From Minisyncoccota bacterium (GTDB taxonomy: Bacteria; Patescibacteriota; Minisyncoccia; Phycocordibacterales; JABAAK01), in NCBI GenBank assembly GCA_965222235.1, contig OZ244939.1, positions 184,585 through 248,584 of the forward strand: 64,000 nt of DNA, given 5' to 3'. Made by a program: the position numbers and the translations under genes. The notes beneath the pieces are model-generated. The model had not been told where the DNA came from. It made no database searches and was given only the letters and a program-made list of their open reading frames with translations. The stretch's first letter is position 1, and the number at the start of each line of letters is the position of its first letter. Below are positions 18,342 through 58,094 of the stretch, piece after piece.

Positions 18342-21300
18342 CTATGCCGTCAGTTCAGATCGTCTCCTTCCCCGTGGTGTCGGACGCCCTTCCCGCTCGG
18401 GAATTTCCAGGTGCACATTGAGACCGAGACCGCGCAGATGGTACAGCAGCACATTAAATGTTGCGGGAATGCCCGTCTGAACGATGGGTTCGTTATGTAT
18501 AATTGAGCGGTATGCGGCGTTTCGCCCCTGCATATCATCCGACTTTATCGTCAGCATCTCCCGCAGCGTATACGCGGATCCGTGACCGAGAAGCGCCCAC
18601 ACTTCCATTTCCCCGAGACGGTTTCCGCCGAAGCGCGCGCGTCCGCCGGGGGGCTGCTGGGTAATGAGCGAATATCGGCCGGTTGAACGGGCGTGCACTT
18701 TGTCCTCCACCATGTGCTCCAGCTTCATAACATACATCCAGCCGATGGCGACATCACTGGCAAACTTTTCCCCCGTCTTGCCGTCAAAGAGCTCAATGCG
18801 GCCGTTTTCCGGATACCCGGCCCGCTTCAGTTCTTCGCGCAGTTCTTCGTCAGTGACAGAAGTCATAGTCGGCACAATCGCCTGATAGTTCAGGGAATGT
18901 GCGGCGAGACCCAGATGCATTTCCAGAATCTGCCCGAGATTCTTTCGGGACGGGACACCGAGTGATGAAAGAATGATGTCAATGGGTTCACCGTCATTGG
19001 TGAACGGCATATCCTCCACGGGCGCAACACGAGATATGACTCCCTTGTTTCCGTACCGGTTCGCCAGCTTGTCGCCTATCTGAATGCTGCGCAAATCGGC
19101 GACGGTAATATTAATCTGTTTCAGCACCCCTGTTTTTATATGATGGCCGTCTTCACGATTCCGCACCTGCACGGAAACAACCTTTCCTTTCTCGCCCGGT
19201 GGCAGCACCTTGGAGGTGTCGCGCATATCCTTCGCCTTGTCGCCGAATATTGACTGCAGCAGACGCTCCTCGGCCGACAGTTGCACCTCGCTTCTCGGCG
19301 TCAGCTTGCCGACCAGAATATCACCCGTCGTCACTTCCGAGCCGACGCGGACGATGCCCTCAGCGTCAAGATTTCTCAGCTTCCGGTCGGACACGTTCGG
19401 TATATCCGCGGTCATCACATCCGGACCGAGCTTGGTTTCGCGAATCTCGGCGACATATTCCTCAACCTGCGTAGAAGTGAGCACATCATCCCGCACCAGC
19501 CGTTCGGAAATAATAATTGAGTCCTCAAAGGTTCCGCCGTCGTACGGAAGGAACGCAACGCGCAGATTTTTTCCGAACGCCATCTGTCCGTTCTCCGTTG
19601 ATGCGTTATCCGCAAGCACATCCCCCTCCTTTACCCTGTCCCCCGGCCGCACCACCGAACGCTGATGGTTGGCAAATGAATGTGCCAGACCCGCGGGTGT
19701 AAACACCTCAAGGTCATAGCGTTTTGTACCCTGTTTGGTTTTCAAAGTGACATGGTTCGCGTCAGATTCAACAATCTCACCGGCCTCTTCCGCGTAAATC
19801 AGCCGGCCGGATGCCTGAGCGAAACCGGATTCAAGACCTGTTGCAACAAGCGGCGGCTCCGGATGGAGGCACGGCACCGCCTGCTGCTGCATTCGCGTTC
19901 CCGTTGCGGCACGGACCGGCAGCGTGTTGTGCAGAAACGGAATAAGCACGGATGACACGGAAAACATCTGGGCGGTAGAGACATCAACGTAGTCCACCAT
20001 TTCCGCGTGCACACGCTCGTACTGACCGTTATGCCGCACCAGAACGACATCCTGGGTAATGACCGTCTTGTCGTTCACCGCCACATCCGCGCCGGCAATG
20101 TGATACTGCCCTTCTTCAATCGCGGTGAAGTACTGAACTTCATCGGTAATCTTCCCGTTATCCACCTTAAAATACGGACATTCCAGAAGCCCGTACTGGT
20201 TAATGCGGGCATACAGGGCAAGGTGCAGCACCAGTCCGATGTTCGGCCCCTCGGGAGAGTGGATCGGGCAGATACGACCGTAGTGGGTATGATGAATATC
20301 ACGCACCGAAAGGCTGGCATGCTCGCGGGATACGCCGCCGGAGCCGAGCGCGGACACCGTCCTTAAATGATCCAGCTCGGTCAGAATATTTTGCTGTTTC
20401 AGCTGCTGCGAGAGCTGGTTGGTATTAAAAAACCCGTAGACCGTTGACTGAAATGTGCGCATGTACAGCGCGTTCGTCGGAAGATCAAGCGACTTCGGAT
20501 CCAGGGTAAGCATCCGGTCACGGGTATTTTTGCACATTCGCATAAAGCCGGTGCGTGCATATTCATACGCTAACTCGCCGACTGACCGCACGCGCCGCAT
20601 ACCGAGATGATCAATATCGTCATCAGCGGCATCCGGCGTGTTATTCAGCCGCACGATTTCCTTGATGATAACGGTGATATCATCCAGAGTGAGTATCCGC
20701 TGTTTCAGCGCCTGTGCATCGGTCGGTCGATTAAACCGCTTGTTAAAACTCATTCTCCCCAGCTCGGTTAAGTCATACCACTCGGGAGAAAACCTCGTCT
20801 GCACCAGCTGCTTGGCCCGCTCGGCGCTCACCGCACTGCCCGCCCGCAGAAACTTATAGAACGACGTCCATACTTCATTCATGATTTTGGCGTCATCAAC
20901 GGCGAATGTTTTCTTGACAGCCGCTAACGCAAGTTCGTCATCCTTAAAAAGGTTAAGAACCGCCTCCTCCGTCTCAGGACCGAATGCGCGCAGAAAAAGT
21001 GTGATCGGCATTTTTCGGTTCCCCTGATCAACCCGAACGAAGATGCGGCCGCTCGGATCGCTTTCAAATACAATCCATATACCGCGACCTTTTTGAGGTA
21101 TTATCTGGGCACCGAACGTTCGCGCCTTGCCGGTGCTGACGCTTGAGAACCGGACTCCGGGCGCCCGGACCAACTGCGAGATAACGGTACGTTCAATGCC
21201 GTTGATGATAAAGGTGTGCTGCGGGGTCATAATCGGTATATTGCCGAACAGTACCTCCTCATCTTTTTTTACTCCGGTTACTTTGTTTTCCAGACTCAGG

Positions 21301-21566
21301 TGTACCTTGAAAGGCGCGGTGTAACTGGCGAACTTCTCTTTCACCTCCTGCACTGACACGCGGGGTTCCTCCATTTTGCAGGATTTGAAGTGTATGTAAA
21401 AGCGTTCGTTTGAATCAACAATCGGGAAAAACTCCTGAAACAGCTTCTGGAGATCTGTTTTCAAAAACGTATCGTACGACTTTTTTTGGAACGACAGTAT
21501 GTTCCCCGGTGCCAGGGGCGACATACGATAACTCGAAAAAGTTTTTTGTGGCCGTGTTTCCTTCAT
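18342..21566 (-). CDS. rpoB: DNA-directed RNA polymerase subunit beta
   Basis: Protein of 1074 aa carrying conserved beta-subunit blocks. Immediately upstream of rpoC. Confidence 0.97.
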   Translation of the reverse strand: MKETRPQKTFSSYRMSPLAPGNILSFQKKSYDTFLKTDLQKLFQEFFPIVDSNERFYIHFKSCKMEEPRVSVQEVKEKFASYTAPFKVHLSLENKVTGVKKDEEVLFGNIPIMTPQHTFIINGIERTVISQLVRAPGVRFSSVSTGKARTFGAQIIPQKGRGIWIVFESDPSGRIFVRVDQGNRKMPITLFLRAFGPETEEAVLNLFKDDELALAAVKKTFAVDDAKIMNEVWTSFYKFLRAGSAVSAERAKQLVQTRFSPEWYDLTELGRMSFNKRFNRPTDAQALKQRILTLDDITVIIKEIVRLNNTPDAADDDIDHLGMRRVRSVGELAYEYARTGFMRMCKNTRDRMLTLDPKSLDLPTNALYMRTFQSTVYGFFNTNQLSQQLKQQNILTELDHLRTVSALGSGGVSREHASLSVRDIHHTHYGRICPIHSPEGPNIGLVLHLALYARINQYGLLECPYFKVDNGKITDEVQYFTAIEEGQYHIAGADVAVNDKTVITQDVVLVRHNGQYERVHAEMVDYVDVSTAQMFSVSSVLIPFLHNTLPVRAATGTRMQQQAVPCLHPEPPLVATGLESGFAQASGRLIYAEEAGEIVESDANHVTLKTKQGTKRYDLEVFTPAGLAHSFANHQRSVVRPGDRVKEGDVLADNASTENGQMAFGKNLRVAFLPYDGGTFEDSIIISERLVRDDVLTSTQVEEYVAEIRETKLGPDVMTADIPNVSDRKLRNLDAEGIVRVGSEVTTGDILVGKLTPRSEVQLSAEERLLQSIFGDKAKDMRDTSKVLPPGEKGKVVSVQVRNREDGHHIKTGVLKQINITVADLRSIQIGDKLANRYGNKGVISRVAPVEDMPFTNDGEPIDIILSSLGVPSRKNLGQILEMHLGLAAHSLNYQAIVPTMTSVTDEELREELKRAGYPENGRIELFDGKTGEKFASDVAIGWMYVMKLEHMVEDKVHARSTGRYSLITQQPPGGRARFGGNRLGEMEVWALLGHGSAYTLREMLTIKSDDMQGRNAAYRSIIHNEPIVQTGIPATFNVLLYHLRGLGLNVHLEIPEREGRPTPRGRRRSELTA

Positions 21567-21681
21567 TTGTCGCGTTTGACTATCGCACGCAGCACAATAA
21601 TAAACACGGACAGATGGTCAAATCCTGAGTGCCTTGTTACAGAACGCATGCTACCAAATCACTATAATTTGTCAACCCATC

Positions 21682-21707
21682 CTTAATGGTTCAATACATT
21701 TGCACAT
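21682..21707. repeat. IS481-family terminal inverted repeat, left copy (26 bp)
   Basis: Exact reverse complement of 22618-22643. Confidence 0.85.
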
Positions 21708-22597
21708 GAGTGTACCACATCTATGGGTTTCTTAAGGTCAATGCCGAAATGCGGTCTCTCATGGTTGTAATGATGGAGGTATTGGGCGTATTGTTCTCTG
21801 AGATCGTCATATTCTTTGAAAGGAGCCTTGTAGTAGATGAACTCCTCCTCATCAGTCCTGAACGATCGTTCAATGACGGCATTCTCGTTAGGACTTGATT
21901 TGTGAATATAGTGGTGTTTTGTACAGAGAGCAGTTACATGGGTATGGAATCTTTTTTGAAATTCAAGACCGTTATCCGTTTGGATGAATACTGTTCTGAA
22001 GGGTAGACGGTTCACTATTTCCGTCATAGCTGAAATGGCATTATTCTGATTCAGATCATTGTATATGACGGCATCCTTGTATCGGGAGTAAATGTCTATG
22101 ATGGCATACTCGAAACAGGTCCAGGGCAATCCTGTCAATTCAGGGGTGAGGTACTTCACATCCATCTGGAGGTAGCCGACGGTTTCAGCGTTCTTTGCGT
22201 GCATATGTACTGTATTCTGACACAAGGGACGACGATGTCGCTTCTTCTGTCGTATGTAGCCACGGGCTATCAGGAACCGTTTCACCGTACTTACTGATAC
22301 CGCTATACCGGTTTCCTCCCTGAGTTTCTCGGCACACCATCCCCGTTTCTGCCTCATTGCCGCAATGACTACTCTTTCCTCCCCGGAGAGTGCCGGTTCC
22401 CTCAGTCTCTTCGGTCTCGTGCTCTTCCGCTGCAGTCCCCGCATGACATACCGCGGTTCCCCGTAGGGATACGGTGACCGTGCCCGTCTCAGCCACCGGG
22501 ATACCGTGGTTCTGTGGATACCGAGCAGTTCAGCAGTATGCTGTATATCTCTTGTTTCTTTGTATATTTGAATGATTTTCTTGGGATGTTGTCTCAT
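21683..22597 (-). CDS. IS481-family DDE transposase (N-terminal HTH plus rve integrase core)
   Basis: N-terminal helix-turn-helix (LLGIHRTTVSRWLRR). DDE core with QTDNGLEF and HYNHERPHFGI motifs typical of IS481/IS3-superfamily integrases. A single ORF of 304 aa. Confidence 0.82.
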   Translation of the reverse strand: MRQHPKKIIQIYKETRDIQHTAELLGIHRTTVSRWLRRARSPYPYGEPRYVMRGLQRKSTRPKRLREPALSGEERVVIAAMRQKRGWCAEKLREETGIAVSVSTVKRFLIARGYIRQKKRHRRPLCQNTVHMHAKNAETVGYLQMDVKYLTPELTGLPWTCFEYAIIDIYSRYKDAVIYNDLNQNNAISAMTEIVNRLPFRTVFIQTDNGLEFQKRFHTHVTALCTKHHYIHKSSPNENAVIERSFRTDEEEFIYYKAPFKEYDDLREQYAQYLHHYNHERPHFGIDLKKPIDVVHSCANVLNH

Positions 22598-22617
22598 ACA
22601 TCTGCAGTATCGCTGCT

Positions 22618-22643
22618 ATGTGCAAATGTATTGAACCATTAAG
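22618..22643. repeat. IS481-family terminal inverted repeat, right copy (26 bp)
   Basis: Exact reverse complement of 21682-21707. Lies about 20 bp upstream of the transposase ATG. Confidence 0.85.
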
Positions 22644-22793
22644 CCCATCATATACCATACACCCGAAAAGACGAACGCATCATGATGCCCACGGCACATT
22701 GTCGGAAAAAGTAATCACCAGAAGCGCTCCAATCAGCACGAACACCAGCATTGTGAACACGCGGTAATTATCCATACACCCACTATATCACAA

Positions 22794-24185
22794 TCAGGAT
22801 TGTAGATATTCACGGGGATCTAATTTCGCCTCCGTGGCGGCAACCGGCACCAGCAGACCGCGGCATCGGGCACTGGCGGAAACCTGCTCGTACGGCACCA
22901 CCCGGATACCGTTTGAATCGTACACGCCGAAGTGCAGATGCGGACCCGTGCTGAAACCGGTATTGCCGCTGTAGCCGATGAGATCGCCCATCTCAATCCG
23001 CTGTCCCAGACGCACCTTGGTAAGCGACAGGTGTGCATAGAGCGTGGTAAGACCGAAGGCATGCCTGATAAGCACCCACTTACCCCATGACTGACAGCTC
23101 GGAACAAGATCCGTGTTCCCCGTACCGATAATGATACCCGCAGCGCTTGACAGCAGTTCCGTCCCTGACGGCAGGGCGAAGTCAATTCCGTCGTGGAACG
23201 GCCTGCCGTATCGCCGCGCGTTCGCCTTGGCAAAGCTGGTTTCGCCGAAGTTCTGTGTCACCCGCGCCACAGGATTAAACGGTCGGCGCAGCAGCCCCCG
23301 CCGCGGTTCCGGCACCGCGTCAGGATCATACAGATATTCAATCCGCGACTCATATTCATATATCTCCTGCTGCAGTTCCAGCCGCTCCTCCTGCTTATCC
23401 CGCAGTAGCTTCTGATACACCGCTTCATCATTTTTAGTCCTATCAACCAGCCGCTGCTTCGCCACAATTGAGAACTTGTATATTTTCTTTCTGTCCTCGA
23501 GCGCGCGTTGTTCCCGCGTCAGTGTAATCTGCTCATCAGCGACTTCGCCTTTATTCTCCTCCAGATACTTCGTCTCCTGTTCAAGCAACTGCAGCTGATT
23601 CCGCAATGATGTGGAATACCGCTCCAGCTCCTCAAGCGAGCGGAGTACTTCAAAGAGCGACGGATTCAGAAAAATTGACATCTCACTGTCCTGCAGCTCA
23701 AATTCATTCGCCCGCTGATAGTTGTTGACAAGAATGCGGTGGAGCGTTTCAATATTCCCCTCGTTCGTGCCGATTGAGCTGTCAAGCGATGTGACCCGAA
23801 GTTTCCCCTGCTGTATGCGCCCCTCCGTCACCCGAATTTGCGCCTCATTCCTTCTGTTCGTCAGCGACAGACTCTCCAGCTCGGACTCCAGGGTATCCTT
23901 CTTCTTGTATATCTCGCGCAGATCCTCGTTGATGCTGTCAATTTCCTCCTCCGTTTGTCTGATGTGATTCTCCCGTTTGTCCAGCTCCTGTTTCAGATTC
24001 GCAATCTCGGGATTTTCACGCACAAGAACAACACCGCTATCAAGCTCCGATCCGTTCTGCGTCGGCACATACGCCCCCTCCTGCTCGGAAGGGCGTACCA
24101 GCGTCTCCTGCGCAAAGACACCGAAGACCGAAACGGCGATACACAGCCATGAGAGAATATATACAGCATAGATGGATACGCGCAT
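22794..24185 (-). CDS. M23-family peptidoglycan metalloendopeptidase with an N-terminal coiled-coil region (EnvC/LytM-like)
   Basis: Signal/TM segment, then about 250 aa of heptad-rich coiled coil. The C-terminal M23 domain has intact HxxxD (HDGIDF) and HxH (GPHLHF) zinc motifs. Confidence 0.8.
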   Translation of the reverse strand: MRVSIYAVYILSWLCIAVSVFGVFAQETLVRPSEQEGAYVPTQNGSELDSGVVLVRENPEIANLKQELDKRENHIRQTEEEIDSINEDLREIYKKKDTLESELESLSLTNRRNEAQIRVTEGRIQQGKLRVTSLDSSIGTNEGNIETLHRILVNNYQRANEFELQDSEMSIFLNPSLFEVLRSLEELERYSTSLRNQLQLLEQETKYLEENKGEVADEQITLTREQRALEDRKKIYKFSIVAKQRLVDRTKNDEAVYQKLLRDKQEERLELQQEIYEYESRIEYLYDPDAVPEPRRGLLRRPFNPVARVTQNFGETSFAKANARRYGRPFHDGIDFALPSGTELLSSAAGIIIGTGNTDLVPSCQSWGKWVLIRHAFGLTTLYAHLSLTKVRLGQRIEMGDLIGYSGNTGFSTGPHLHFGVYDSNGIRVVPYEQVSASARCRGLLVPVAATEAKLDPREYLQS

Positions 24186-24193
24186 ACCTTAGT

Positions 24194-25570
24194 TTATATA
24201 ATACCGCTCTTTTTTCCGCCGAGCACGGCAATCGCACGCGTAATCCGTGAGAGCGTCCGTGTCCGACCGAGCGCAGCCGCGATAAAAAAGGAATCGGGGC
24301 TCTGTTCCCTGCCGGAGAGCGCAACGCGCAGCGGCCAGAGCACCGCCGAGCGTCCCTGTTTCTCGGCATGGCTCCACACCGCGTCGCGAATCGCTTCGGC
24401 ATACCACTGCCGGTATGCGCCGAGCGCGCTCAAAAGATCATGGGTTGTCTCAAGCCCCCGCAGCACCGCCACGCGGTCAACCGCTTTCGGGATAAGCAAA
24501 TCAGCCGGGTACACCGGAGTGATAAACAGAAAATCATACGCTCCGTCCTTAATCGCATCACGATCCCGGGCAAGCAGCCCCCCCCGTTCGCGCACCGCGG
24601 CAAGCACCGCCCGTACCGAACGCGGATACAGCCGCGACCGCAGCGGAAACCTGCGCGTCAACTCCGGCACAATCTCCCCACGCAGCCTGGTTTCGGACAG
24701 CGAACGAATGTATTGTTTATTGAACCACTGCATCTTCTGCTCATTGAACACGGCCTCCTTTTTCTGCAGACGACCGGGATCAAACGCATCAATCAGATCA
24801 TCAAGCGTGAACAGTTCACGATCATCACCCGGCGACCAGCCGAGCAGCGCGATGGTGTTCAGTACCGCCTCGGGAAGGTACCCCCGATTTCTGAAATCCG
24901 TGACGGATGCCGCATCCTTCCGCTTGGACAGTTTGCCGCCGGACGGCGAATGAATGAGCGGGATGTGCGTATACACCGGCAGCGCCGCGCCGAGCGCCCG
25001 CAGAAGAAGTATCTGCCGCGGCGTGTTCACGATATGGTCGTCACCGCGCAGGACATGCGTAATACCCATCTCACTGTCGTCAATCGCCGTTGCAAGGTTA
25101 TAAAGCGGATCGTCAGAACCGCGGGCAATGACGAAATCCCCCAAATCAGATGTGTCAATAGTGATATCGCCGCGTACCGTGTCGGTGAACGAAACAACCG
25201 GATCACGGTTACGGAACCGGATGACCTCAACGGTATGCTCGGGATCTTTCTTTGACGGCTCACGCGACACGTACGCCCGGTCAGATTCAAGAAGGTGTCT
25301 GATATGCCGCTCATAGATCCGCCGCCGCGCCGACTGCCGGACAACGGCGTCCGGACGGATACCGAGCCAGTACAGGGAAAACAGTATCTCCTGTTCATGC
25401 CGTCGTTCGCTCCGCTCCCGGTCGGTGTCGTCAAACCGGACGATATATGTGCCGTTATGCTGTTTCGCGAATACATAGTTAAACAGCGCGGTACGCGCGG
25501 TGCCGACATGAAATGAGCCGGTCGGAGACGGTGCGACGCGGGTAACGATACGGGGTGCGGAACTGTTCAT
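24194..25570 (-). CDS. gltX: glutamyl-tRNA synthetase
   Basis: Class I signature PSPTGSFHVGTART and a KMSKS-type KLSKRK motif. Confidence 0.9.
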   Translation of the reverse strand: MNSSAPRIVTRVAPSPTGSFHVGTARTALFNYVFAKQHNGTYIVRFDDTDRERSERRHEQEILFSLYWLGIRPDAVVRQSARRRIYERHIRHLLESDRAYVSREPSKKDPEHTVEVIRFRNRDPVVSFTDTVRGDITIDTSDLGDFVIARGSDDPLYNLATAIDDSEMGITHVLRGDDHIVNTPRQILLLRALGAALPVYTHIPLIHSPSGGKLSKRKDAASVTDFRNRGYLPEAVLNTIALLGWSPGDDRELFTLDDLIDAFDPGRLQKKEAVFNEQKMQWFNKQYIRSLSETRLRGEIVPELTRRFPLRSRLYPRSVRAVLAAVRERGGLLARDRDAIKDGAYDFLFITPVYPADLLIPKAVDRVAVLRGLETTHDLLSALGAYRQWYAEAIRDAVWSHAEKQGRSAVLWPLRVALSGREQSPDSFFIAAALGRTRTLSRITRAIAVLGGKKSGII

Positions 25571-25573
25571 ATG

Positions 25574-26731
25574 CTATGCCTCATGGGATTTAAGAATATC
25601 GGCGAGTGTGCGCGCCACCTTTTTTGCCGCATCGGGCTTTGCGAACTCCTTCGCCTTCTGTGAGAGCTGATCGCGCATCGCGGAATTGTCAAGCACCGCG
25701 TTAATCTGCGAAACCAGCAGATGCGGCGAGAGGTTCTGCTCTTCAATGACAATGCCTGCCGCGGACCGGGCATAGGCATAGGCGTTCTTTTTCTGATCAT
25801 GCGACACCTCCTCGCGGATGGGGATGACAATAGCGGGGATACCCCACGCCGCTATCTCAAACAGCGTTCCCGAACCGGCGCGGGTGATGATGATATCTGC
25901 GACAGAATACAGAACACGCATATAGTAGGCGTTCAGAAAAGAGAGCGGGCGGTAGATATGCGCTCCTTCAAACATACGCAGGTAGCTCTCCGTCTCATGC
26001 TCAATATCCTTAATGTTCCGCTTACCCGTCTGATGCACCACCTGATACTGCTTCAGCAGATTCGGCAGCGCGTCCACCACATTGTCGTTAATATATGTCG
26101 CGCCGGATGATCCTCCCAGCACCACGACCGTCGGCACATTCGGATCCAATTTCAGCAGATCATGCGCTTCAGGATTCGGATTATACAGCACTTCCCGCCG
26201 GAGCGGCACGCCGATGAGGGCGGTGCGCTGCCGCTCTTTTTCTTTCAGTTCCTGCTCCGCCTCGGGGTACGCGACGGCGATATACTTCGCGAACGACGCC
26301 GACCACTTCGTCACTCTGCCGAGCGCGGCGTCGGATTCGTGAATGACCACGGGAATGCGCAGCAGGCGGGCGGCGAAAAGCACCGGAAAGCTCGCGTACC
26401 CGCCTTTGCTGAACACCGCATCGGGAAAGATAAGGTAGAGATTGACCGTCGCCTTGAATATGCCGAAGACAATCGGAAAAAAAGCGAACAGGTTTCTGAT
26501 CCGCGACCCGATATCCCGGGTTCGGCGTATCTTGCCGGCGGAACAGTACACATACCGCATGCCCGCATTGTAGAGCGCCTTCTCGTCATACTTTCCCGGC
26601 CCGAAATAATATTTTTTGGGCTGAATCAGCTGATGCTCCTGGGCATAAGTGTCAATTTCCTGCGCTACGGCTATGAGAGGATAAAAATGGCCGCCGGTAC
26701 CGCCGCCGGTAAAGACTACTTTCATATGCAT
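25574..26731 (-). CDS. murG: UDP-N-acetylglucosamine--N-acetylmuramyl-(pentapeptide) pyrophosphoryl-undecaprenol N-acetylglucosamine transferase
   Basis: N-terminal GGTGGH motif and a GT-B fold glycosyltransferase of about 380 aa. Confidence 0.88.
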   Translation of the reverse strand: MHMKVVFTGGGTGGHFYPLIAVAQEIDTYAQEHQLIQPKKYYFGPGKYDEKALYNAGMRYVYCSAGKIRRTRDIGSRIRNLFAFFPIVFGIFKATVNLYLIFPDAVFSKGGYASFPVLFAARLLRIPVVIHESDAALGRVTKWSASFAKYIAVAYPEAEQELKEKERQRTALIGVPLRREVLYNPNPEAHDLLKLDPNVPTVVVLGGSSGATYINDNVVDALPNLLKQYQVVHQTGKRNIKDIEHETESYLRMFEGAHIYRPLSFLNAYYMRVLYSVADIIITRAGSGTLFEIAAWGIPAIVIPIREEVSHDQKKNAYAYARSAAGIVIEEQNLSPHLLVSQINAVLDNSAMRDQLSQKAKEFAKPDAAKKVARTLADILKSHEA

Positions 26732-49400: not shown

Positions 49401-50013
49401 CTACTGGGTAGTAATCTAGTATGACCCCTACTCTAAGAAAAGAAGAAAGGGGTAAGTAATGAAAATAATATTCTTGATCTGGTTTCGGTCTGAACGGGTG
49501 TAAAAATAAAAAGGTGTATAAACTGTTCCTTTCGCTTGCACTACCACCGATATTAAATTCGGGGTCTTTAATATAAATATGTGTTATCCAACCAAACCCA
49601 CCCTGACCAGACTTTTCAACCGTGTATACCTTTTTAATAGAAACATCTTCATGAGCTAAGGAAACAACAGTGTGTTTAATGACAGGAAGGACAGAGAATA
49701 AAACAAGAATAATCATAAGAGATTCTAAAATACGTAGTACGAGTAATGTTTTGGTTGGTTTCTTATTAAAATAAAGATAGGCATGTAATCTTTTTTTATT
49801 TTTTGTATATAGAAAGTAAATCGGTTTGCATAACTCAAACAAGCAAACAAAAAACATGGCAGTATAGAAATAGAAGTAGAAAATCCACGTTGATAGCCAT
49901 ATTGGTATGAAGTATTTCGGTACAAAGAGGACAATGAAAAGACCGATGCCGATATAGGTATAGATAGGGTGTTTCTTAAAAAATCTGATAATTTTTTTCA
50001 AAATGTTCTTCAT
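49369..50013 (-). CDS. candidate immunity protein for the full-length RHS toxin (3-TM membrane protein)
   Basis: Its start codon overlaps the RHS stop in an ATGA arrangement at 50010-50013. Protein of 214 aa, paralogous to 47248-47892. Confidence 0.55.
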   Translation of the reverse strand: MKNILKKIIRFFKKHPIYTYIGIGLFIVLFVPKYFIPIWLSTWIFYFYFYTAMFFVCLFELCKPIYFLYTKNKKRLHAYLYFNKKPTKTLLVLRILESLMIILVLFSVLPVIKHTVVSLAHEDVSIKKVYTVEKSGQGGFGWITHIYIKDPEFNIGGSASERNSLYTFLFLHPFRPKPDQEYYFHYLPLSSFLRVGVILDYYPVDENRNRIYDE

Positions 50014-53000
50014 CTTCTTGATTGTAGTGCTCTGATCCTTCTTTTTAATCTTGTTATTTCTTTTCGTAAGTAAGAGATTCTTTTCCTGATGCTTTGTGTC
50101 GTTATGTTGCTGTTATGTACACGTCTCTGAGTTCCTTCAAAAAAAGATTGAGGAAGTGATCGTGTTGTTTCAGCAACAAAGCCTTTTAATCCTGTTTTAG
50201 CACTCACATTAAGTATGGAAGCAGTGCCCCTACCAACTCGTGTGAGTGTTGATGAGTATGTTGAAGAAAAACTATGAGAACCTTTTGTGACATATGGAAT
50301 TTTTACAAATTTGCCGGCACCAGAAAGAAGAGAACTTCCTATTGTCCTAAAACCAAATCTCACAAAATTAAATTTCTGATCCTCGTTTTTATGCACCTCC
50401 CAACCTTGCTCAATTAAATCTCTCGTTGCCCCACCGGCACCTCCTGCAAGAAACAAACTGGCACCTCCTGTACCCGCTGCTATTGTCCCGGTAGTAGCAC
50501 CTCCAACCCCGGCAGCAACATAGCGGTAGGGATCAGAAACCTCTCCTGCGATGACATCAGCAACTACTTGAGAACCTATTCCTGCTAGTGCACCAATCGC
50601 AGCACCAATCGCAGCACCAATCGCTATATGCGCCAACTCCCCATCCCTATCCTCATAGCGCAGAGGATTATTCATAGCATACGCATAGGTATGGTGTGCC
50701 TGAGGATTGGTAAGGTAGTCAAGAAACGATACGCCTGTTGCTGCCTCAAACGCCACCGGACCTCCTATGTATTCTATTACCGGATCTTTGGAGATAAACA
50801 GTCCTTTATTCGGATCGTAGTATCGAGCATTTCTGTAGATAAAGTCTGTTTCATCCGTTATATTCCCCGTATGGGTATAGAGTGAATCTGTTGTGGCTGT
50901 TTCCGTATGTTTTTCTCCGTAGGGGTAGTAGTCTATTGTTTGGGTTACCGTTCCTTCTTTATTTATTCCCGCAATGGTACTTCCCAGTGCATCAGTGTAG
51001 AGATGGGTGTGCTGTGTTTTCTTGCATCGGGTGTCTTCTGTATTCGGGGATACAGTGACTGCTGTTTCATTTCCTCTTTTTACTACGATATTACCGTTTT
51101 CCGTTACCTTTGTATACTCTGTCTCCGGTGTGAGAGTGAAGAGGAGACTGGTTTGTGTGAGGAGACAAAGATCACTTACCCCGCTTACATTCTTGATACT
51201 TCCTATCACTTCTCCTTCGGCGAAGATGTGTGTTTCAATAGTACCGTTTTCAAGGGTGTAGTACGGATTTACAAAAACTGTATTATCTGTCCCCTTTGTT
51301 TCTTTCACCCGATTACCTTCATGATCATAGAGATAGGTGTAGGTGTCAGCTCCTTCGGTGATTGTTTTTACTCTGCCTTTGTAGTCCCAGGTAAGGGTGT
51401 TGGTTCCGTCTGTCAGGAAGTTTCCGTTTGTGTCATAGGTCTGTGCCGCTGTGCCTACTGTAGTGGGCATGTGGGGGGTAGTGAAGGTTGTCTCATCGGA
51501 GGTAAGATAAGTATAGTTGCCGACACCCGTTTTTGAGGTTATATTCCCTATCGCGTTGTATGTATAGCTTCTTGTGTAATTGTTTGATCCGTTATTGGTT
51601 ACTGTTGCACTAATGAGACGATTCATATTGTCATACGTGTATGCTTTGTTTACCGCTGTACCCGATGTGTTAGTATCAATCGTAGCAGTTATGTTACTGT
51701 CTCTGTCGTAGGTGTACTCAAGTTTTCTCGCAACAGCGATACTATTCCCCTTCACTTCCCTTATTGTCAGTCTTCCCGATGAATCGTATGTGTTTGTTTC
51801 TTTTGATCCGTTTGATCCGGTTTTTGTGTCAACCAGACCGAATACGTTGTAGGTAAGGGTTGTAAAGGGAGTATCGCTCACGGATACCGAAGAAACTCTG
51901 CCATTTTTTCCGTAGATGTTTTTAATAACAGTGCTGTTCGGAAGTGTTGTGGTGACTATGCCATTCTGTAAATTATGTGTATAGGTTGTTGTGTATGCGG
52001 TGCCGCTGATTGTTTTCACCTCTTCTTTCAGATTTCCTTCTTTATCGTATTTATAGGTCGCATTAACACTATCCGCTGAGGTAACAGAACAGATGCTTCC
52101 TTTTCCGTTCTCACAGGAATCGTATGTATACTGATAATCCGTTCCTGTAACAGATGCTCTGTCCTCCGTTAATGCCCTGCCGAGTGCATCATAGGTATAT
52201 GCTATAGCGGTTCCGTCCCGCTTTGTTTTTGATGTCAGGTACTCCTTGTTATACGCAAATTGCAGTGTCTTGTATGTCGTATCACTCGTGTGATGTAAAT
52301 CCTCAATGCTTGTGGTTCGTCCTATCATGTCATACTGTATACCACGGACATTATTCAACGCATCCTTCACTTTAATAATGCGATCCAATGGATCGTAGGT
52401 ATAGGTGGTGGTATGGGTGGAGGCACCGTCTATTTCATGCACCCTGTGCAGACGCCCGTAGCTGTCGTGTTCCAAACGTTTTTTCCTGTCCTCCGCCGAG
52501 GTAATTTCAACCGTATGCCCGTCATATGATGAAGTTGTTGTTCCGACCGGATTAACCACAGATACTATTCTGTTCAGCCCGTCATAGGTTGAGGAAGTGT
52601 TTGACGTGCCGGTTGGTGTTGTTGCATATGAACTTGTTGATGACTGGTACGGCATGTATTTTTTCTCAATCAGTCCCCGCTCGGTGTATGTTACATCCTC
52701 AGTATCAAACTTCGTGCCGTTAGATGTTTTTGTCTGTATTGTTCTGCCCAGACCGTCCATGTATGTCTGTCCGATTCTGGTTGCTGATCCGAAGTGCTCC
52801 CTCCTTTGCACTGAGTACGGACGATTTGTAAAGTTATACGAATAATCCGCCACTGTCTCTTTTGTACTTGCCCGTTTTTTCTTTATCGCCGTTATTCTGT
52901 CAATTCCGTCAAATTCGTAGTATATCTCAAAACCGTTCGGGTCTGTTATTTTTGTTACCTCTCCTGATGTTTCGTCGTATTCATACTGTGTGACATGTGA

Positions 53001-56000
53001 GAGTGGGTTGGTTTCCTGTGTCAGACGCAGTGAGTTGGTGTCATACGTATAGGTTGTTGTGTTGTTCAGGGAATCATTTTCCGTCAGCACCCGCCCTCTC
53101 GTGTTGTATGTGTAGGTTCTTTTTTGCTTTGTCGTGCCGTCTATCTTTCTCTTTTTTGTGAGCATATTCCCATTTGAGTCGTAGGTATACTCATTTTCAA
53201 CAATAATCACATCCGATGCATTTTTTATCGTTTCCTCGGACAGCAATGAAACTATATAATTGGTCGTGTCCGGCGTTTTGTAGGTGTACACTACCTTGCG
53301 CAATACGGCGGTTCCGCTCTTTTTTGTCTCAGTGAGCACATTACCGTATGTGTCGTAAGTGTATTCCGTGCTGTTTGAGTAGTCATCACCGAATGTTACA
53401 TTGCCGCTGCCGTATACCGTCTTTTTCTCTTTTGTCAGGTACATGTATGTGCTGTTTGTGCCGTTGCTGGTTTCCCCGTATGTGTATTCAATCTTTTCAA
53501 GAAGAATGTTCGACTCGCCTTCATTTACTGCCGCTTGGTATATTTCTTTCTTGTACGGAAGTCCTATTTTTGCATACGAGTCAGTCGGTTCCGCATTGGT
53601 GCTATTCTGCCCATTTCCCTGGTGGTAGTATATTTTTTCTTTTCTGTTTCCCCGTGTTCTCTCCACTGTTTCAAAACCGGCGAACTTTTTGTCAGACGGA
53701 CCGTTAAAGTAGTAATACCCGCCTGTGTACCCGAGAGTTTCCGTGTTGTCCGTGGCATATGTATCCGTATATGCAATTGAGGAGACGATGCGGAGGGGAA
53801 ACGGCACCCTGTTGGTTGTATCATGCACTCCGGCACCGGTGTACGATATATCAAAACTGCCGCCGTATTTGGTAGTGATTGTGTCTAATTCAAACGTGTT
53901 GTCAGCAATGAAGTATTTGTAGTCATATCCAAAATTTCTTCTCCCCACTCTTTGCTTTTTATAGTACACATCATTTATTCCGTCGCCGTTTACATCTATC
54001 ATGGCATTTACATATATATTTCCGTTTGAGTTTGATCCGGCATGTTCTAATATACCTGCATTCCTGAGAGCGTCGGTATATTTCTTACTGTATTGATACC
54101 CATCAATACCCTTACTCAAATAGACTCGGTATCCGTAGTTATGTGTTTTGGTTATATCTTTGATATTTCGATCAATATCTCTATCGTTATAAATATCGGT
54201 GACAATGAGGTCATACATACCATCCGTGTTTATATCCTTCCATGATCCGGCATATCTGTCAGTACTGAAGTTATTGTTTCCGTCGGCAAAATAAATTGTG
54301 GGGTAATTCAAGTAATCAATGTCCGCCGACCAGCCGAACCCATTATTGATTTTAGATCTACTTATATCAGCAAGACCGTCACCGTTGTAGTCAATAAGGA
54401 AGTTCGGAACTCGTAACCCGTAATAGGGACCGTGATAGGGATCCCCCCTGTTGTAGTACAGAATATACGGTACTGATATGGTGCTTGACTGTACCGGATT
54501 AAATCCGTCGGCGTTTAGAAACACAAGTGTTGTAGTGTAATCCCTCCATCCGCCACCACGAGTATGCCTATCATACCTCTTTGGAAATACATCCAACGTC
54601 CCATCTCCGTTTATATCACCCAGACCGTCAGCCCATGAGGAATGAAAGTCCCTGTTAATAGAGGTTCTGCTGAAGGTGTTGAGTGAGCCATTATTCTTGT
54701 ATATATAACTGTTAGTACTGCACCTCTTACATCTTCTTGTTATGACCTGAAGAAAATCAGGGTAATAATCGCCGTTCATATCAAACTTACCCTGAACGCT
54801 ATCAAATGTCGGAAACATATCGATTGCGGAGTTAAAACCGTTACCATTGTTCACCTGAGTATCATTTGTCGCCCCCAAGGAAACAACATCAGGCATACCA
54901 TCCCTTGTCGCATCTGCAAGACCTGACGGACCGGTAGATCCATAACTGCTGTTTTCCGTGTATGAAATAGTGTCAGTGTATCCAAACGTTGTTTTCGGTT
55001 CGGTTGTCCAATTGCCGTCTGCATCCTTGCCGTATTTGTACAACGCTTTGATAACATACGTGTATTTCAATTCATTGACAAGTTCAAGATCCTGTTTGTA
55101 TGAAAATAGTTTTTCCGTACCTTTGTAAAAGTCAATGCCGTTTATTATGTACTTCGTTTTTACCGGAAATCCTGTATTGAAAAGTTTTGTCTTATCATTT
55201 CTCCCCTGTTTGGTGAATTGGAGCGAATACACATATGATCCTCCGGAAGTATTTACATACTCTATCTTCTTCGGGTATATCTGCCCGTGGTCTTTGGTGT
55301 ATGTGTACTCTATCGTGTTGCCATTTGTATCTTCTATCTTTTCAAGCATCCATTTGAACGTTTCTGTTTCCCACTGTACCGTGCCGTCCTGACGCGCCTG
55401 CAGAGTTTCACCGAAGTAATACTTCGTACCGACGGTATCAGTTACTACCCAATAATCACCAATTTTCTCGTATTTTCTGAATGCTCCTTTTTCTGTCCTC
55501 GGCTTATACATCTCCGACTGTGTGGTACTCTTTGTTGTTGTTTCACTTATTTTGTATGTGTATACCTCACCCCCATCGTACCACCGGTTTCGGCGACTGT
55601 CAAACCTGGTAACTCCCGCAGCGATATATCCTCCGTCAAGAGATATTGATCGCGCAGAAAAATCACCTGTGATGTCGGGGGGAATTACTTTTCTCTCAAA
55701 TCCCCAGGTGCCGTCACTTTTCTCTTTATACACATAAAACATATACTTTCTATGTTCTGTATCCCTTGCGCCCACTGTTAAGGTGTCTCCGTCGAGCAAA
55801 ACACCCCATGAACCGAAAACAATGTTCGAGTGGCTGTCTGACGCTTTCAGTTTCACCGGATTACCCCATGTTCCGTCTGATTCTCTCGTGTATACATACA
55901 CCGCACCAGAGGATTCAATACCGGTACTCTCCCCACTCATACCGATTGCCAAGGTGTTTCCGTTGATTGCAACAGATGTGCCGAATGGGGTTTTTCCTAT

Positions 56001-57374
56001 TATGACTTGATTTTCATATTTTGTAGTATTGCCGGGCTTGCTTGCATTACCCCACCCTCCGTTCACATCCTCTTCGTATATAAATACTGCCGGACCGTTG
56101 CCTGTAGTAACTACAAGACGATTTCCTGCTAATGAAATACGATCTCCGAACTCTCCTGAAGTGTTGCGATTCCCATATCTGGCGCTCGGATACAGTGACT
56201 CTTTTTTTATCCACGAACCCGCATCATTCCGTTTATATACCTCAATATACCACCATGACTGTCTATCCCTCGCCTTCACCGCCAGTATGTCATCATCAAG
56301 GTATACGGTATCAGCAGACCGAACCTGAATTTCCGTTCTGTTTCCCCACACATCATTCGTCCCCCTTTTATACACAAATACCTTGTTACTTGAAACCGTG
56401 ACAGCCAAATAATCTCCTGATAGGGAAATATTTTCTCCGAAACTGGAATATGTGGCATCCGACAATCGTTGTAAAAAAGCCCACGAGCCGCTACTCTGCC
56501 TCTTGTATATATACACCACACCGTCTGCTCCATTTCTTTCGTTGTCGTCTAAGTCGTATGTAGGGGCACTCATAGCAAGGTAGTCCCCGTTTAGTGAAAC
56601 CCTTTGTCCGAACCGGCTGCTTGCTTTCCAATCGGTCGGCACAATTTTCTGTTTACTACCGATGGCATACTCCTTTACGGGATATGATGTAGACGATATA
56701 CTTGCCGTATTTTGTTTTACTATTTCACCGTCCAGTGATGAAATATAATCATCGTTTGTATATATTTTATTTGAACCCTTTTTTGTTGATCGCTCTATAT
56801 ATGGTATATCCACTTCCCAACCGTACCCGAATATGCCGTTATTCTTTTTGTTGGAACTCTTGAAAACAAGATTGTGCTGAGGAGTAAACCCGTTTCTCCC
56901 TTCGGGGACGGTAAGAGAGTATGAATAGGTGAGTGATCCGTCTAAATTGTCTATCAATGGGTGAATAACATTCCCTGATGATTTTATTGTTCCCGTTGTC
57001 CCGGATGAAGAGCCCGATGCCCCTGATGCCCCATCTTCAGTATCCTGATTATCAACATAATCGTCAGGCAACTCAAAGGACGGGTGAATGGGGCCCCCGC
57101 TATCAACAGAACCCTGAGCGGGAGGTTCCGGCAAATCACCGATTCCGTCATCCTCATCCGGCGATACGGTACCGCTCGGTCCGTCCTCTATCTGCCCTGA
57201 CGGTCCCGAAGTTTCACCCTGTGCATAAGAAACCAACGGGTTAAGGACAAGGAGCAGTGAAAGTGTAAAAGAAAGGAGTACCGATGATATTGAATGATAT
57301 CTCTTATTGCGAAACGGTACAATAGTATCAAGTGAACTATACGAACTGGTTACCATATTAAAGAAACGGTACAT
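50010..57374 (-). CDS. giant RHS/YD-repeat polymorphic toxin, a fused TcB/TcC-like cocoon protein: signal peptide, SpvB-like N-terminal domain, FG-GAP/VCBS beta-propeller repeats, YD repeats, RHS core and a variable C-terminal toxin domain
   Basis: Start set at MYRFFNMVTSS, 57374. The ORF-track extension to 57731 runs through the divergent promoter region and is judged artefactual. Signal peptide ISSVLLSFTLSLLLVLNPLVSYAQG. SpvB-like block GSLTYSYSLTVPEGRNGFTPQHNLVFKSS...GYGWEVDIPYIERST. DxNGDGxxD repeats (DINGDGTLDV, DYNGDGLADI, DVNGDGINDV). Dozens of YD repeats (YTYDTNGN, YEYDETSG, YTYDALGR...). RHS core RYYDPNKGLFISKDP ... NNPLRYEDRDGE, followed by a 208-aa C-terminal domain rich in glycine-zipper motifs. 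Confidence 0.85.
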   Translation of the reverse strand: MYRFFNMVTSSYSSLDTIVPFRNKRYHSISSVLLSFTLSLLLVLNPLVSYAQGETSGPSGQIEDGPSGTVSPDEDDGIGDLPEPPAQGSVDSGGPIHPSFELPDDYVDNQDTEDGASGASGSSSGTTGTIKSSGNVIHPLIDNLDGSLTYSYSLTVPEGRNGFTPQHNLVFKSSNKKNNGIFGYGWEVDIPYIERSTKKGSNKIYTNDDYISSLDGEIVKQNTASISSTSYPVKEYAIGSKQKIVPTDWKASSRFGQRVSLNGDYLAMSAPTYDLDDNERNGADGVVYIYKRQSSGSWAFLQRLSDATYSSFGENISLSGDYLAVTVSSNKVFVYKRGTNDVWGNRTEIQVRSADTVYLDDDILAVKARDRQSWWYIEVYKRNDAGSWIKKESLYPSARYGNRNTSGEFGDRISLAGNRLVVTTGNGPAVFIYEEDVNGGWGNASKPGNTTKYENQVIIGKTPFGTSVAINGNTLAIGMSGESTGIESSGAVYVYTRESDGTWGNPVKLKASDSHSNIVFGSWGVLLDGDTLTVGARDTEHRKYMFYVYKEKSDGTWGFERKVIPPDITGDFSARSISLDGGYIAAGVTRFDSRRNRWYDGGEVYTYKISETTTKSTTQSEMYKPRTEKGAFRKYEKIGDYWVVTDTVGTKYYFGETLQARQDGTVQWETETFKWMLEKIEDTNGNTIEYTYTKDHGQIYPKKIEYVNTSGGSYVYSLQFTKQGRNDKTKLFNTGFPVKTKYIINGIDFYKGTEKLFSYKQDLELVNELKYTYVIKALYKYGKDADGNWTTEPKTTFGYTDTISYTENSSYGSTGPSGLADATRDGMPDVVSLGATNDTQVNNGNGFNSAIDMFPTFDSVQGKFDMNGDYYPDFLQVITRRCKRCSTNSYIYKNNGSLNTFSRTSINRDFHSSWADGLGDINGDGTLDVFPKRYDRHTRGGGWRDYTTTLVFLNADGFNPVQSSTISVPYILYYNRGDPYHGPYYGLRVPNFLIDYNGDGLADISRSKINNGFGWSADIDYLNYPTIYFADGNNNFSTDRYAGSWKDINTDGMYDLIVTDIYNDRDIDRNIKDITKTHNYGYRVYLSKGIDGYQYSKKYTDALRNAGILEHAGSNSNGNIYVNAMIDVNGDGINDVYYKKQRVGRRNFGYDYKYFIADNTFELDTITTKYGGSFDISYTGAGVHDTTNRVPFPLRIVSSIAYTDTYATDNTETLGYTGGYYYFNGPSDKKFAGFETVERTRGNRKEKIYYHQGNGQNSTNAEPTDSYAKIGLPYKKEIYQAAVNEGESNILLEKIEYTYGETSNGTNSTYMYLTKEKKTVYGSGNVTFGDDYSNSTEYTYDTYGNVLTETKKSGTAVLRKVVYTYKTPDTTNYIVSLLSEETIKNASDVIIVENEYTYDSNGNMLTKKRKIDGTTKQKRTYTYNTRGRVLTENDSLNNTTTYTYDTNSLRLTQETNPLSHVTQYEYDETSGEVTKITDPNGFEIYYEFDGIDRITAIKKKRASTKETVADYSYNFTNRPYSVQRREHFGSATRIGQTYMDGLGRTIQTKTSNGTKFDTEDVTYTERGLIEKKYMPYQSSTSSYATTPTGTSNTSSTYDGLNRIVSVVNPVGTTTSSYDGHTVEITSAEDRKKRLEHDSYGRLHRVHEIDGASTHTTTYTYDPLDRIIKVKDALNNVRGIQYDMIGRTTSIEDLHHTSDTTYKTLQFAYNKEYLTSKTKRDGTAIAYTYDALGRALTEDRASVTGTDYQYTYDSCENGKGSICSVTSADSVNATYKYDKEGNLKEEVKTISGTAYTTTYTHNLQNGIVTTTLPNSTVIKNIYGKNGRVSSVSVSDTPFTTLTYNVFGLVDTKTGSNGSKETNTYDSSGRLTIREVKGNSIAVARKLEYTYDRDSNITATIDTNTSGTAVNKAYTYDNMNRLISATVTNNGSNNYTRSYTYNAIGNITSKTGVGNYTYLTSDETTFTTPHMPTTVGTAAQTYDTNGNFLTDGTNTLTWDYKGRVKTITEGADTYTYLYDHEGNRVKETKGTDNTVFVNPYYTLENGTIETHIFAEGEVIGSIKNVSGVSDLCLLTQTSLLFTLTPETEYTKVTENGNIVVKRGNETAVTVSPNTEDTRCKKTQHTHLYTDALGSTIAGINKEGTVTQTIDYYPYGEKHTETATTDSLYTHTGNITDETDFIYRNARYYDPNKGLFISKDPVIEYIGGPVAFEAATGVSFLDYLTNPQAHHTYAYAMNNPLRYEDRDGELAHIAIGAAIGAAIGALAGIGSQVVADVIAGEVSDPYRYVAAGVGGATTGTIAAGTGGASLFLAGGAGGATRDLIEQGWEVHKNEDQKFNFVRFGFRTIGSSLLSGAGKFVKIPYVTKGSHSFSSTYSSTLTRVGRGTASILNVSAKTGLKGFVAETTRSLPQSFFEGTQRRVHNSNITTQSIRKRISYLRKEITRLKRRIRALQSRR
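50615..51498. repeat. duplicated RHS core segment, copy inside the full-length gene (about 884 bp)
   Basis: See 48479-49362. The offset between the copies is 2136 bp. Confidence 0.85.
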
Positions 57375-57488
57375 ACATGCAAACACTAATATTACTATGA
57401 TACCTTTTAAATTAACCCGCGACTCACTTTCCCACTTTGGAGGCGCCGACCCGGCGCGGTTGCGCCGCATATGATGCGGAGAAAAGAC

Positions 57489-57595
57489 ATGATGTTCCTT
57501 TTCCCACAATGTTTGTGTTACAATGCAATACATATGAAGGAGGGAAAAGAGTACATCCCGAGGTCGCAGGAACCAAAACCTTTCATGGAAGGAGC
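57489..57595 (+). repeat. direct repeat, right copy, including the promoter/RBS/start of the 57533 gene
   Basis: The 97-bp stretch at 57499-57595 is identical to 46506-46602. It lies in the divergent intergenic region between the RHS gene on the minus strand and the 57533 gene on the plus strand. Confidence 0.85.
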
Positions 57596-58094
57596 GGCGT
57601 ATAGGCCTGGGGAAATCATACATTTTGACCAGGCAACCAAAGAGGAGGTTGTGGAGATTTTGAACAATCAAGATTTGTCTCAAAACGAGCGGGAGAAACG
57701 TGTTTTCACATATCTTAAAAATCATCCGCAAGATCAGCTAGTTATTGAGGGACAGATAGATGAAGTAACCTACGACGGCATTGAGAACCTGCCCCTTCCG
57801 GAGAAATATGTACTATTCTCGCATCTAATGCGAAAGTGGGATGAAAATAAATCCGTAAAAATGGAGTTAAGGAAAACCGTTGAAACCATATTTAAACGGG
57901 AGGATATCAGTGAGACAGAACAGGATGCCCTCATATCCAAGTATGTGCAAGAACAAGGTTTATCGGCAACAGATACCGATCTTCTTATACAGAAAATTGT
58001 AACCCGAGGAACCGGCAGTTTGAGCAGAAAAGAAAATGTCGCTCTTTACACAGCCCTTGAAGAGAATTGGAAACAACAGCATCACCCGCACTAA
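57533..58094 (+). CDS. hypothetical soluble protein, AT-rich, divergently transcribed from the RHS gene
   Basis: Start chosen at ATG AAG GAG GGA (MKEGKEYIPRSQ...). No recognisable family. AT-rich composition like the rest of the island. Confidence 0.4.

Follow-up and report, generated by a model that had tools for sequence, protein, structure and literature searches.

The 64,000-nucleotide (nt) stretch of Minisyncoccota contig OZ244939.1 analysed here (the window) carries an insertion sequence (IS) between an M23 peptidase gene and rpoB, with rpoC, dnaG and rpoD lying downstream of rpoB on the minus strand, and the question that this locus raises is why a mobile element lies at the head of such an array and what it does to the array's expression. 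A first reading of this DNA, made from the sequence alone (the sequence-only reading), had placed the IS between these two genes, 115 bp upstream of rpoB and in the same orientation, and had proposed it as a possible outward promoter for the rpoB-rpoC-dnaG-rpoD array. The placement is borne out, with 115 nt between the end of the IS and the start of rpoB on the same strand, and the position itself appears to be explained by the way in which the element chooses its targets. With a probability of roughly 0.85, we consider this to be an intact IS481-like IS of a clade found in the Candidate Phyla Radiation (CPR, or Patescibacteria) and the Dehalococcoidia, which selects sigma-70-type promoters and cuts just upstream of their −35 hexamers.

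Predicted promoters at the edge of the insertions

Where the IS meets the region upstream of rpoB, the minus strand reads from the ...ATTAAG end of the element through GATGGG, TTGACA and AATTATAGTGATTTGG to TAGCAT, and the 16-bp spacer ends in TGG. GATGGG is the rpoB-side copy of the 6-bp target-site duplication (CCCATC on the forward strand, 21676–21681) and would occupy promoter positions from about −41 to −36; the other copy of CCCATC lies on the M23 side of the element, at 22644–22649. The TTGACA at 21670–21675 (minus strand) abuts the duplicated hexamer with no gap, and forms the −35 hexamer of a predicted sigma-70-type promoter, TTGACA-16-TGgTAGCAT, spanning 21675–21648. Its extended −10, TGgTAGCAT, is at 21648–21656 (minus strand) and is identified by both the promoter scan and the alignment described below; the promoter is the best site of the region in the scan. 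Across the whole window, seven sites have at least 10 of 12 promoter matches together with a good −35; three of these are intergenic, and the rpoB promoter is one of the three.

Two relatives that lack the IS (77% and 75% RpoB identity) have different genes upstream of rpoB, and their rpoB upstream regions were aligned to the empty site reconstructed from the window. The TTGACA is invariant, the TGn-TAnnnT motif is retained, and blocks within the leader are conserved. Because the window promoter aligns with the rpoB promoters of both IS-free relatives, we regard the predicted promoter as native, and the TTGACA that touches the duplication as the −35 hexamer of the ancestral rpoB promoter; the comparison with relatives lacking the insertion, which had been suggested in the sequence-only reading as a way of finding the native rpoB promoter, points to this site. 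Because the insertion left the −35, spacer, extended −10 and leader intact, rpoBC-dnaG-rpoD are most likely still transcribed from their own predicted promoter. The IS end has replaced the sequence upstream of −36, and an UP element or an activator site could have been lost with it. On the M23 side, the closest M23 homologues (62–64% identity) are not followed by rpoB, so that no empty-site comparison is available from that direction, and exact-protein look-ups of the window's M23 protein and of the 1074-amino acid RpoB returned no record.

The relationship between the duplication and the −35 hexamer was examined across the clade in two data sets. The first was obtained by a scan with the family alignment, taking one genome per species, and comprises 79 loci, drawn from a wide range of CPR lineages and complete Dehalococcoidia genomes; ends were called from the inverted repeats and the 6-bp duplication alone, blind to the flanks, which gave 46 sites including that of the window. 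Counting from the IS end, 29 of these 46 sites have an exact TTGAC at offset 6, compared with none or one at each of 39 other offsets (binomial P = 3e-60). The promoter-side hexamer has a T at its first position in all 46 sites, followed by T (40), G (43), A (38), C (34), and finally by A or T. Downstream is a TAnnnT box, separated by a spacer of 17 bp (30 sites), 18 bp (6 sites) or 16 bp (5 sites). The opposite flank carries no signal, and the promoter adjoins the left end of the IS in 24 cases and the right end in 22.

The second set, used for replication, consists of 80 metagenome loci whose ends were called from the inverted repeats alone, with 124 unique flanks. TTGAC occurs at offset 6 in 39 of the 124 and at most once elsewhere (P = 7e-79), and TTG is enriched also where the TG of an extended −10 would lie. 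Metagenome copies with an intact duplication have a promoter on one side in ten cases, on neither in two, and on both in none. Among copies with unmatched flanks the corresponding split is 17 : 25 : 9 (both : one : neither side), close to the 1:2:1 ratio expected from chimeric assembly joins or from recombination between repeat copies. The register between the duplication and the −35 hexamer is thus fixed when the two sets, with over 100 independent flanks between them, are taken together, and with the IS in either orientation.

The rule extends from the nearest relatives of the window IS to distant ones. The two closest (76% and 71% identity) have the same arrangement of duplication and −35, and all six fully analysed copies of an IS whose transposase is 70% identical have CTTAAT ends and 6-bp duplications that differ from copy to copy; on one side these abut TTGACx or TTGxxx, and a −10 follows at a spacing of 17–18 bp. 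The promoters beside these copies point at tuf, rplS, nusA and other genes. It is obeyed by further copies on one Dehalococcoidia chromosome, by a subgroup at 46–48% transposase identity, and in subclades whose own repeat sequence is different. We define the clade by ends of the form C[TG]TAAT..., a length of about 930–990 bp, and a 6-bp duplication abutting TTGACx with a −10 at 16–18 bp, on one side only; the window element has all of these features.

The sites that are used also differ from other occurrences of the same pentamer. An exact TTGAC at an insertion is followed by a −10 in 13 of 14 cases in Dehalococcoidia, against a background of 6% (P = 1e-13), and in 12 of 14 cases in CPR, against 12% (P = 6e-9), the background being all other TTGAC in the same loci. 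Because of this enrichment the clade's targets look like functional promoters, as predicted from sequence, and not like bare TTGAC matches. Among 55 unique duplication-verified sites, those whose −35 is weak (matching TTGACA at 2–4 of 6 positions) nevertheless carry a good −10 at 16–18 bp, and on that side only. A count of open reading frames (ORFs) of at least 80 amino acids beginning within 300 nt (29 of 36 promoter sides, against 21 of 35 for the remaining sides) is too unspecific to be informative; the genes called beside the six copies mentioned above give a clearer picture.

Several points weigh against this interpretation. Promoters are sequence predictions throughout; that the rpoB promoter predates the insertion depends on orthology with relatives at 75–77% RpoB identity, and a metagenome scan with the reconstructed TATATGATGGGTTGACAAATTA gave 0 matches to a same-species empty site. 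The analysed sites are survivors, and purifying selection against intragenic insertions must add some share to the promoter association; moreover, about one third of the loci had no clean ends and were left out. Two loci (L035 and L074) have no promoter, and in L078, L098 and the right flank of L171 the register is shifted by 1–5 bp. Finally, we found no published account of IS insertion at the upstream edge of the −35 in open-access full texts, and an earlier description may exist.

How promoters may be selected

We propose that the machinery of this clade picks sigma-70-type promoters as targets and would make a 6-bp staggered cut in the six base pairs, from about −41 to −36, that directly precede the −35 hexamer. 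The host encodes a group-1 sigma factor with region 4. The conserved rpoB promoter would have been the target in the window; the sequence upstream of −36 would have been displaced by 968 bp, and the −35, spacer, extended −10 and leader of rpoB left whole. Landing at the edge of a promoter would be a safe haven in which neither a gene nor a core promoter is broken, and this fits genomes with a coding density of about 90%, as is the case here. We infer that the bias arises at integration and not through later selection, and that the predicted promoters are in use.

There are two candidate ways in which such a promoter could be found. The one that we favor, at about even odds, is docking of the element on promoter DNA that is occupied by sigma-70 or RNA polymerase. 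A more specific version, which we offer tentatively and at somewhat less than even odds, is that the transpososome is recruited by the sigma-70 holoenzyme on the promoter and integrates at the first accessible base pairs upstream of sigma region 4.

The other way is direct readout, in which the transposase itself would read TTGAC at a fixed distance from the cut with no host protein involved, and selection would purge the insertions that break genes; we consider this possible, if rather doubtful. The register is certainly very strict, with the first T present in 46 of 46 sites and −35 hexamers that are unusually consensus-like, and the occurrence of the same rule in two distant phyla would be easier without a co-evolving host partner. 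The first helix-turn-helix (HTH) of the transposase weakly matches sigma-70 region-4 models (E = 0.0016 and E = 0.01), although many HTH models match equally, and positions 7–12 of the repeat read CTGACA or GTGACA in many members. Three aspects of the data nonetheless favor docking. First, the association with a −10 is strong: it is found at 25 of the 28 used TTGAC sites against a background of 6–12%, and selection alone would need to remove insertions elsewhere about 200-fold in Dehalococcoidia genomes of 2–3 Mb. Secondly, promoters with a poor −35 (2–4 of 6 TTGACA matches) are still used when a good −10 sits 17 bp away. Thirdly, target hexamer and repeat hexamer of the element do not covary, the former remaining constant while the latter varies (GGTTCA, CTCTCA, CTAGCA and others), and a repeat-binding surface is thus not simply reused. 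A related candidate, in which the target would mimic the element's own end (CTTAAT-CTGACA in many members), was rejected, since the target is TTGAC[AT] throughout whereas the repeat hexamer is not the same from one subclade to another.

A different kind of explanation, which takes up the proposal of the sequence-only reading, is that the insertion would matter functionally by feeding transcription into rpoBC-dnaG-rpoD, through an outward or hybrid promoter or by read-through from the transposase gene; we think this unlikely. The transposase gene and rpoB are indeed co-oriented and 115 bp apart, and no terminator is predicted from the transposase stop to rpoB (folding from the IS end to the rpoB start gives z = −0.25), so that some read-through into rpoB may occur. 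Such read-through would count against promoter-edge targeting as the whole account of this locus. There is also a precedent in Bordetella pertussis, where IS481 has an outward promoter and the transposase transcript enters the downstream gene in 101 copies; that promoter, however, lies at the opposite end of the element, near the start of the transposase gene (PMC6161684). In the IS end that faces rpoB here, the only outward −35-like hexamer is TTGAAC, 7 nt from the tip and partnered by CAAATT at 17 bp, and the promoter scan calls no outward promoter. With a conserved native predicted promoter intact between the IS and rpoB, the role of the element as an outward-promoter source for the array is not supported. 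Nor does the shared orientation seem meaningful, for members of the clade face the promoter with either end (24:22), so that co-orientation shows no sign of selection.

Chance, with an IS of low preference landing in the M23-rpoB spacer and the TTGACA being coincidental or an artefact of end calling, is highly improbable: survival of an intergenic IS is expected at about 90% coding, but the enrichment falls at a single offset in two independent sets (P = 3e-60 and 7e-79), element ends were assigned with no regard to flanking sequence, the duplicated hexamer is not the same from copy to copy, and beyond the promoter the flanking DNA is unrelated.

The element and its surroundings

The IS proper occupies 21682–22643 (962 bp, minus strand), with limits set by perfect 26-bp inverted repeats and the same end bases as a contig (L001) of the Logan assembly discussed below; the interval 21676–22649 given in the sequence-only reading is the element plus both duplicated hexamers. 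The repeat at the 3′ end of the transposase gene, CTTAATGGTTCAATACATTTGCACAT (21682–21707, minus strand), holds the TAA stop codon, and the repeat at the 5′ end (22618–22643, minus strand) is its exact reverse complement; the two are 26 nt each and 100% complementary. The family consensus of the terminal repeat is CTTAATSTNNCANNACATWTGC, and in the clade the ends have C at position 1 and T at position 3 in 118 of 118 cases, both bases having been required when calling metagenome ends. A search of the window that allowed up to three mismatches found no further copies of CTTAATGGTTCAATACATTTGCACAT (0 expected by chance). The 6-bp duplication is also present in relatives of the window IS.

The transposase gene (21683–22597, minus strand) is one uninterrupted ORF encoding 304 amino acids, which match Pfam rve_3 (5e-14) and N-terminal HTH models. 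When 30 homologues are aligned, the residues D146, D208 and E243, which have the classical DD(35)E spacing, are the same in all of them. In an AlphaFold model (predicted local distance difference test score, pLDDT, 82), two three-helix bundles at residues 5–39 and 72–111, of HTH type, are followed by an RNase-H-like DDE core; among solved structures, the folds most like it are those of IstA, the IS21 transposase, and of retroviral integrases. By sequence, the sole match among solved structures is a weak one, to the bipartite DNA-binding domain of the Tc3 transposase. The perfect 26-bp repeats, the CCCATC duplication and the uninterrupted 304-amino acid HTH-plus-DDE transposase are all in the sequence as first described.

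Directly before the transposase ATG is a leader with a small hairpin (22598–22626, minus strand; −6.8 kcal/mol), which is stronger in most relatives (−9 to −13.6 kcal/mol) and shows compensatory changes in many of them. In most members of the clade the hairpin is strong, its 3′ arm ends at the transposase ATG and the arms covary (ACAACAG/CTGTTGT, ACATCAG/CTGATGT, ACACTTTT/AAAAGTG); the strong hairpin is seen at the 5′ ends of L015, L093, L115, L143 and L164, among others, and its loop often holds a −10-like TAAACT or TAGAAT, 5–7 nt before the transposase ATG. The combination of a hairpin with a −10 in its loop suggests that the transposase mRNA is leaderless and that translation of read-through transcripts is blocked.

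The assignment to the IS481 family that was made from the sequence alone stands in part. The top NCBIfam model is indeed IS481 (NF033577; 159.5 bits, E = 1e-46), aligned over its full length (profile positions 5–283 of 284), although the curated cut-off of 224 bits is not reached; the second model is IS3, with 79.6 bits against a cut-off of 160. As in the IS481 family, this is a single-ORF element of about 1 kb with inverted repeats and a transposase of about 300 amino acids, comprising an N-terminal HTH and a DD(35)E rve-type core. Its 6-bp duplication is also that of most IS481 members, in which duplications range from 2 to 15 bp (PMC10045372). The differences are nevertheless substantial. 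Besides the missed score threshold, the window element and its clade have the termini CTTAAT...ATTAAG and not TGT...ACA. IS481 itself has a TGT terminus. A TGT signature is likewise given for the termini of IS481EU (PMC10045372). Clade duplications lack a palindromic consensus, their last base shows just a weak preference for C or G, and the specificity signal lies outside the duplication and on one side only. For IS481 and IS1002 the target consensus is reportedly NCTAGN, which is not the target here. Because of the sub-cut-off score, the CTTAAT termini and the lack of a palindromic duplication consensus, we call the window element IS481-like and treat it as belonging to a separate clade. Membership of the IS3 family, whose hallmarks are two overlapping ORFs expressed via −1 frameshifting, 3–5 bp duplications and TG...CA ends, is contradicted by the one continuous ORF, the 6-bp duplication and the model score below cut-off.

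Evidence on recency comes from the Logan assembly of run ERR13605531. Here the identical 962 bp form a separate contig (L001), ending exactly at the repeat tips, and the rpoB contig breaks 29 nt inside the IS while otherwise equalling the window over 6.2 kb. The 26-bp repeat is not the cause of these breaks, because it is shorter than the assembler word length, which we take to be k = 31; from the behavior of de Bruijn graphs the element must therefore be joined to more than one flank in the sample. It is thus either multi-copy or polymorphic there. Together with the perfect repeats and the intact duplication and ORF, this agrees with the earlier suggestion that the element is active or recently inserted; it is intact, and probably recent or active. 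The accompanying remark that insertion sequences are comparatively rare in very reduced genomes does not apply to this family: one assembly of CPR-like genomes carries the IS with a 70%-identical transposase (P0003) at least seven times, in identical copies spread over three long contigs.

A few loci of the clade have a more complex structure. At L033 another IS end (CTTAATCTCT...) comes after the duplicated hexamer on the side away from the promoter, and the whole of contig L125 consists of an IS, 6 bp, and the start of the IS again; these represent either repeated insertion at one promoter, or the circle or tandem junction of a copy-out-paste-in intermediate. At L171 the 71%-identical IS copy, which has no matching duplication, has a Y1 (IS200/IS605-type) transposase gene (L171:441-1106) about 350 bp away, and the locus resembles a small mobile-element cluster. 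Close relatives of the IS with promoter flanks of low guanine-cytosine content are also found on contigs labelled Gammaproteobacteria/Pseudomonadales (L011, L016, L018, L076 and L083) or Bathyarchaeia (L079); the contigs with gammaproteobacterial and archaeal labels are probably mis-binned, and not evidence of real hosts.

The gene that the IS precedes, rpoB, is the first of the rpoB-rpoC-dnaG-rpoD array and extends over 18342–21566 (minus strand), as identified with Pfam. The public RpoB record has 1060 amino acids, corresponding to a start at 21524, and the ATG at 21566 gives 1074; the 14 extra residues (..TRPQKTFSSY..) are kept in relatives. Because this N-terminal peptide is conserved, the start at 21566 is favored, and that of the public record is probably too short. 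The rpoB leader (21567–21647, minus strand) was compared with the relatives' sequences at L173:1625-1900 and L174:1830-2050 (75–77% RpoB identity), and the conserved blocks are an AAC after the −10 and a GTCCGT about 45 nt before the ATG. These blocks may be a regulatory leader element; an Rfam scan of 21300–23000 gave no match. The leader also contains a second and weaker promoter-like site, TTGACC-16-TATTGT, at 21621–21594.

The upstream neighbor, the M23 peptidase gene (22794–24185, minus strand), is identified by Pfam Peptidase_M23 (2e-25). Between it and the IS is a 31-codon ORF, MDNYRVFTMLVFVLIGALLVITFSDNVPWAS (22680–22775, minus strand), which begins 18 nt past the M23 stop and ends 30 nt before the duplicated hexamer; it falls below the length cut of the ORF list, and its product, which is strongly hydrophobic, could be a small membrane protein. 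The order murG-gltX-M23 is kept in relatives (L087, L088 and L089, compared with 22794–26731 of the window), and the gene after M23 differs in each, as does the gene upstream of rpoB in each relative. Judged from gene order, the M23/rpoB junction is a rearrangement-prone boundary even without the IS. Elsewhere in the window, an ORF of 2573 codons is present at 50010–57731 (minus strand).

Other targeted elements and implications

Among bacterial elements, the closest parallel is the ISAjo2 group of the IS1202 family, the 'dif site hunters', which are also DDE insertion sequences whose duplication abuts a recognized functional site that is left intact; in these the 5-bp duplication adjoins the XerC-binding arm, always in one orientation (PMC10132070). 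The ISAjo2 group differs in its TnsB-like transposase of 441–457 amino acids, in its target, which is dif or pdif, and in its single orientation, compared with the use of both (24:22) in the clade described here. Tn7 inserts at attTn7 downstream of glmS, at one site per genome and in a fixed orientation, using the targeting protein TnsD. The likeness to Tn7 is that of a safe-haven insertion beside an essential conserved gene without damage, whereas the window clade uses many promoters per genome and both orientations, with a single encoded protein.

A further parallel is with eukaryotic retroelements, for which host tethers are proven: Ty3 integrates via TFIIIB at the start sites of RNA polymerase III (Pol III), Ty1 via Pol III subunits, Tf1 at RNA polymerase II promoters, and murine leukemia virus via bromodomain and extra-terminal (BET) proteins. 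The window clade shares with these a gene-sparing fixed position set by the transcription apparatus and an integrase-type DDE enzyme, with a predicted fold near those of IstA and retroviral integrases. It differs in being a bacterial DNA transposon, and in that a tether is only one of two candidate mechanisms. If recruitment by the sigma-70 holoenzyme were true, it would be a bacterial counterpart of the targeting of Ty3 by TFIIIB, and this would be the first IS guided by the host transcription machinery.

The proposed rule is a target rule for a bacterial DDE transposon in which insertion occurs in a fixed register at the upstream edge of the −35, and at many different promoters. The system is testable, as to whether the promoter is read by the transposase directly or through sigma and RNA polymerase, and it is a possible starting point for tools that insert DNA beside promoters. 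Such a rule would explain why an IS does not kill its host while multiplying in genomes of about 0.6 Mb and about 90% coding density. Each copy in the clade would moreover be a natural promoter marker in the mostly uncultivated CPR and Dehalococcoidia, in which almost no promoters have been mapped, and in the window it would mark that of rpoB. The insertion found here, which has the appearance of a threat to the most essential operon of the window, or of its rewiring, is then probably near-neutral.

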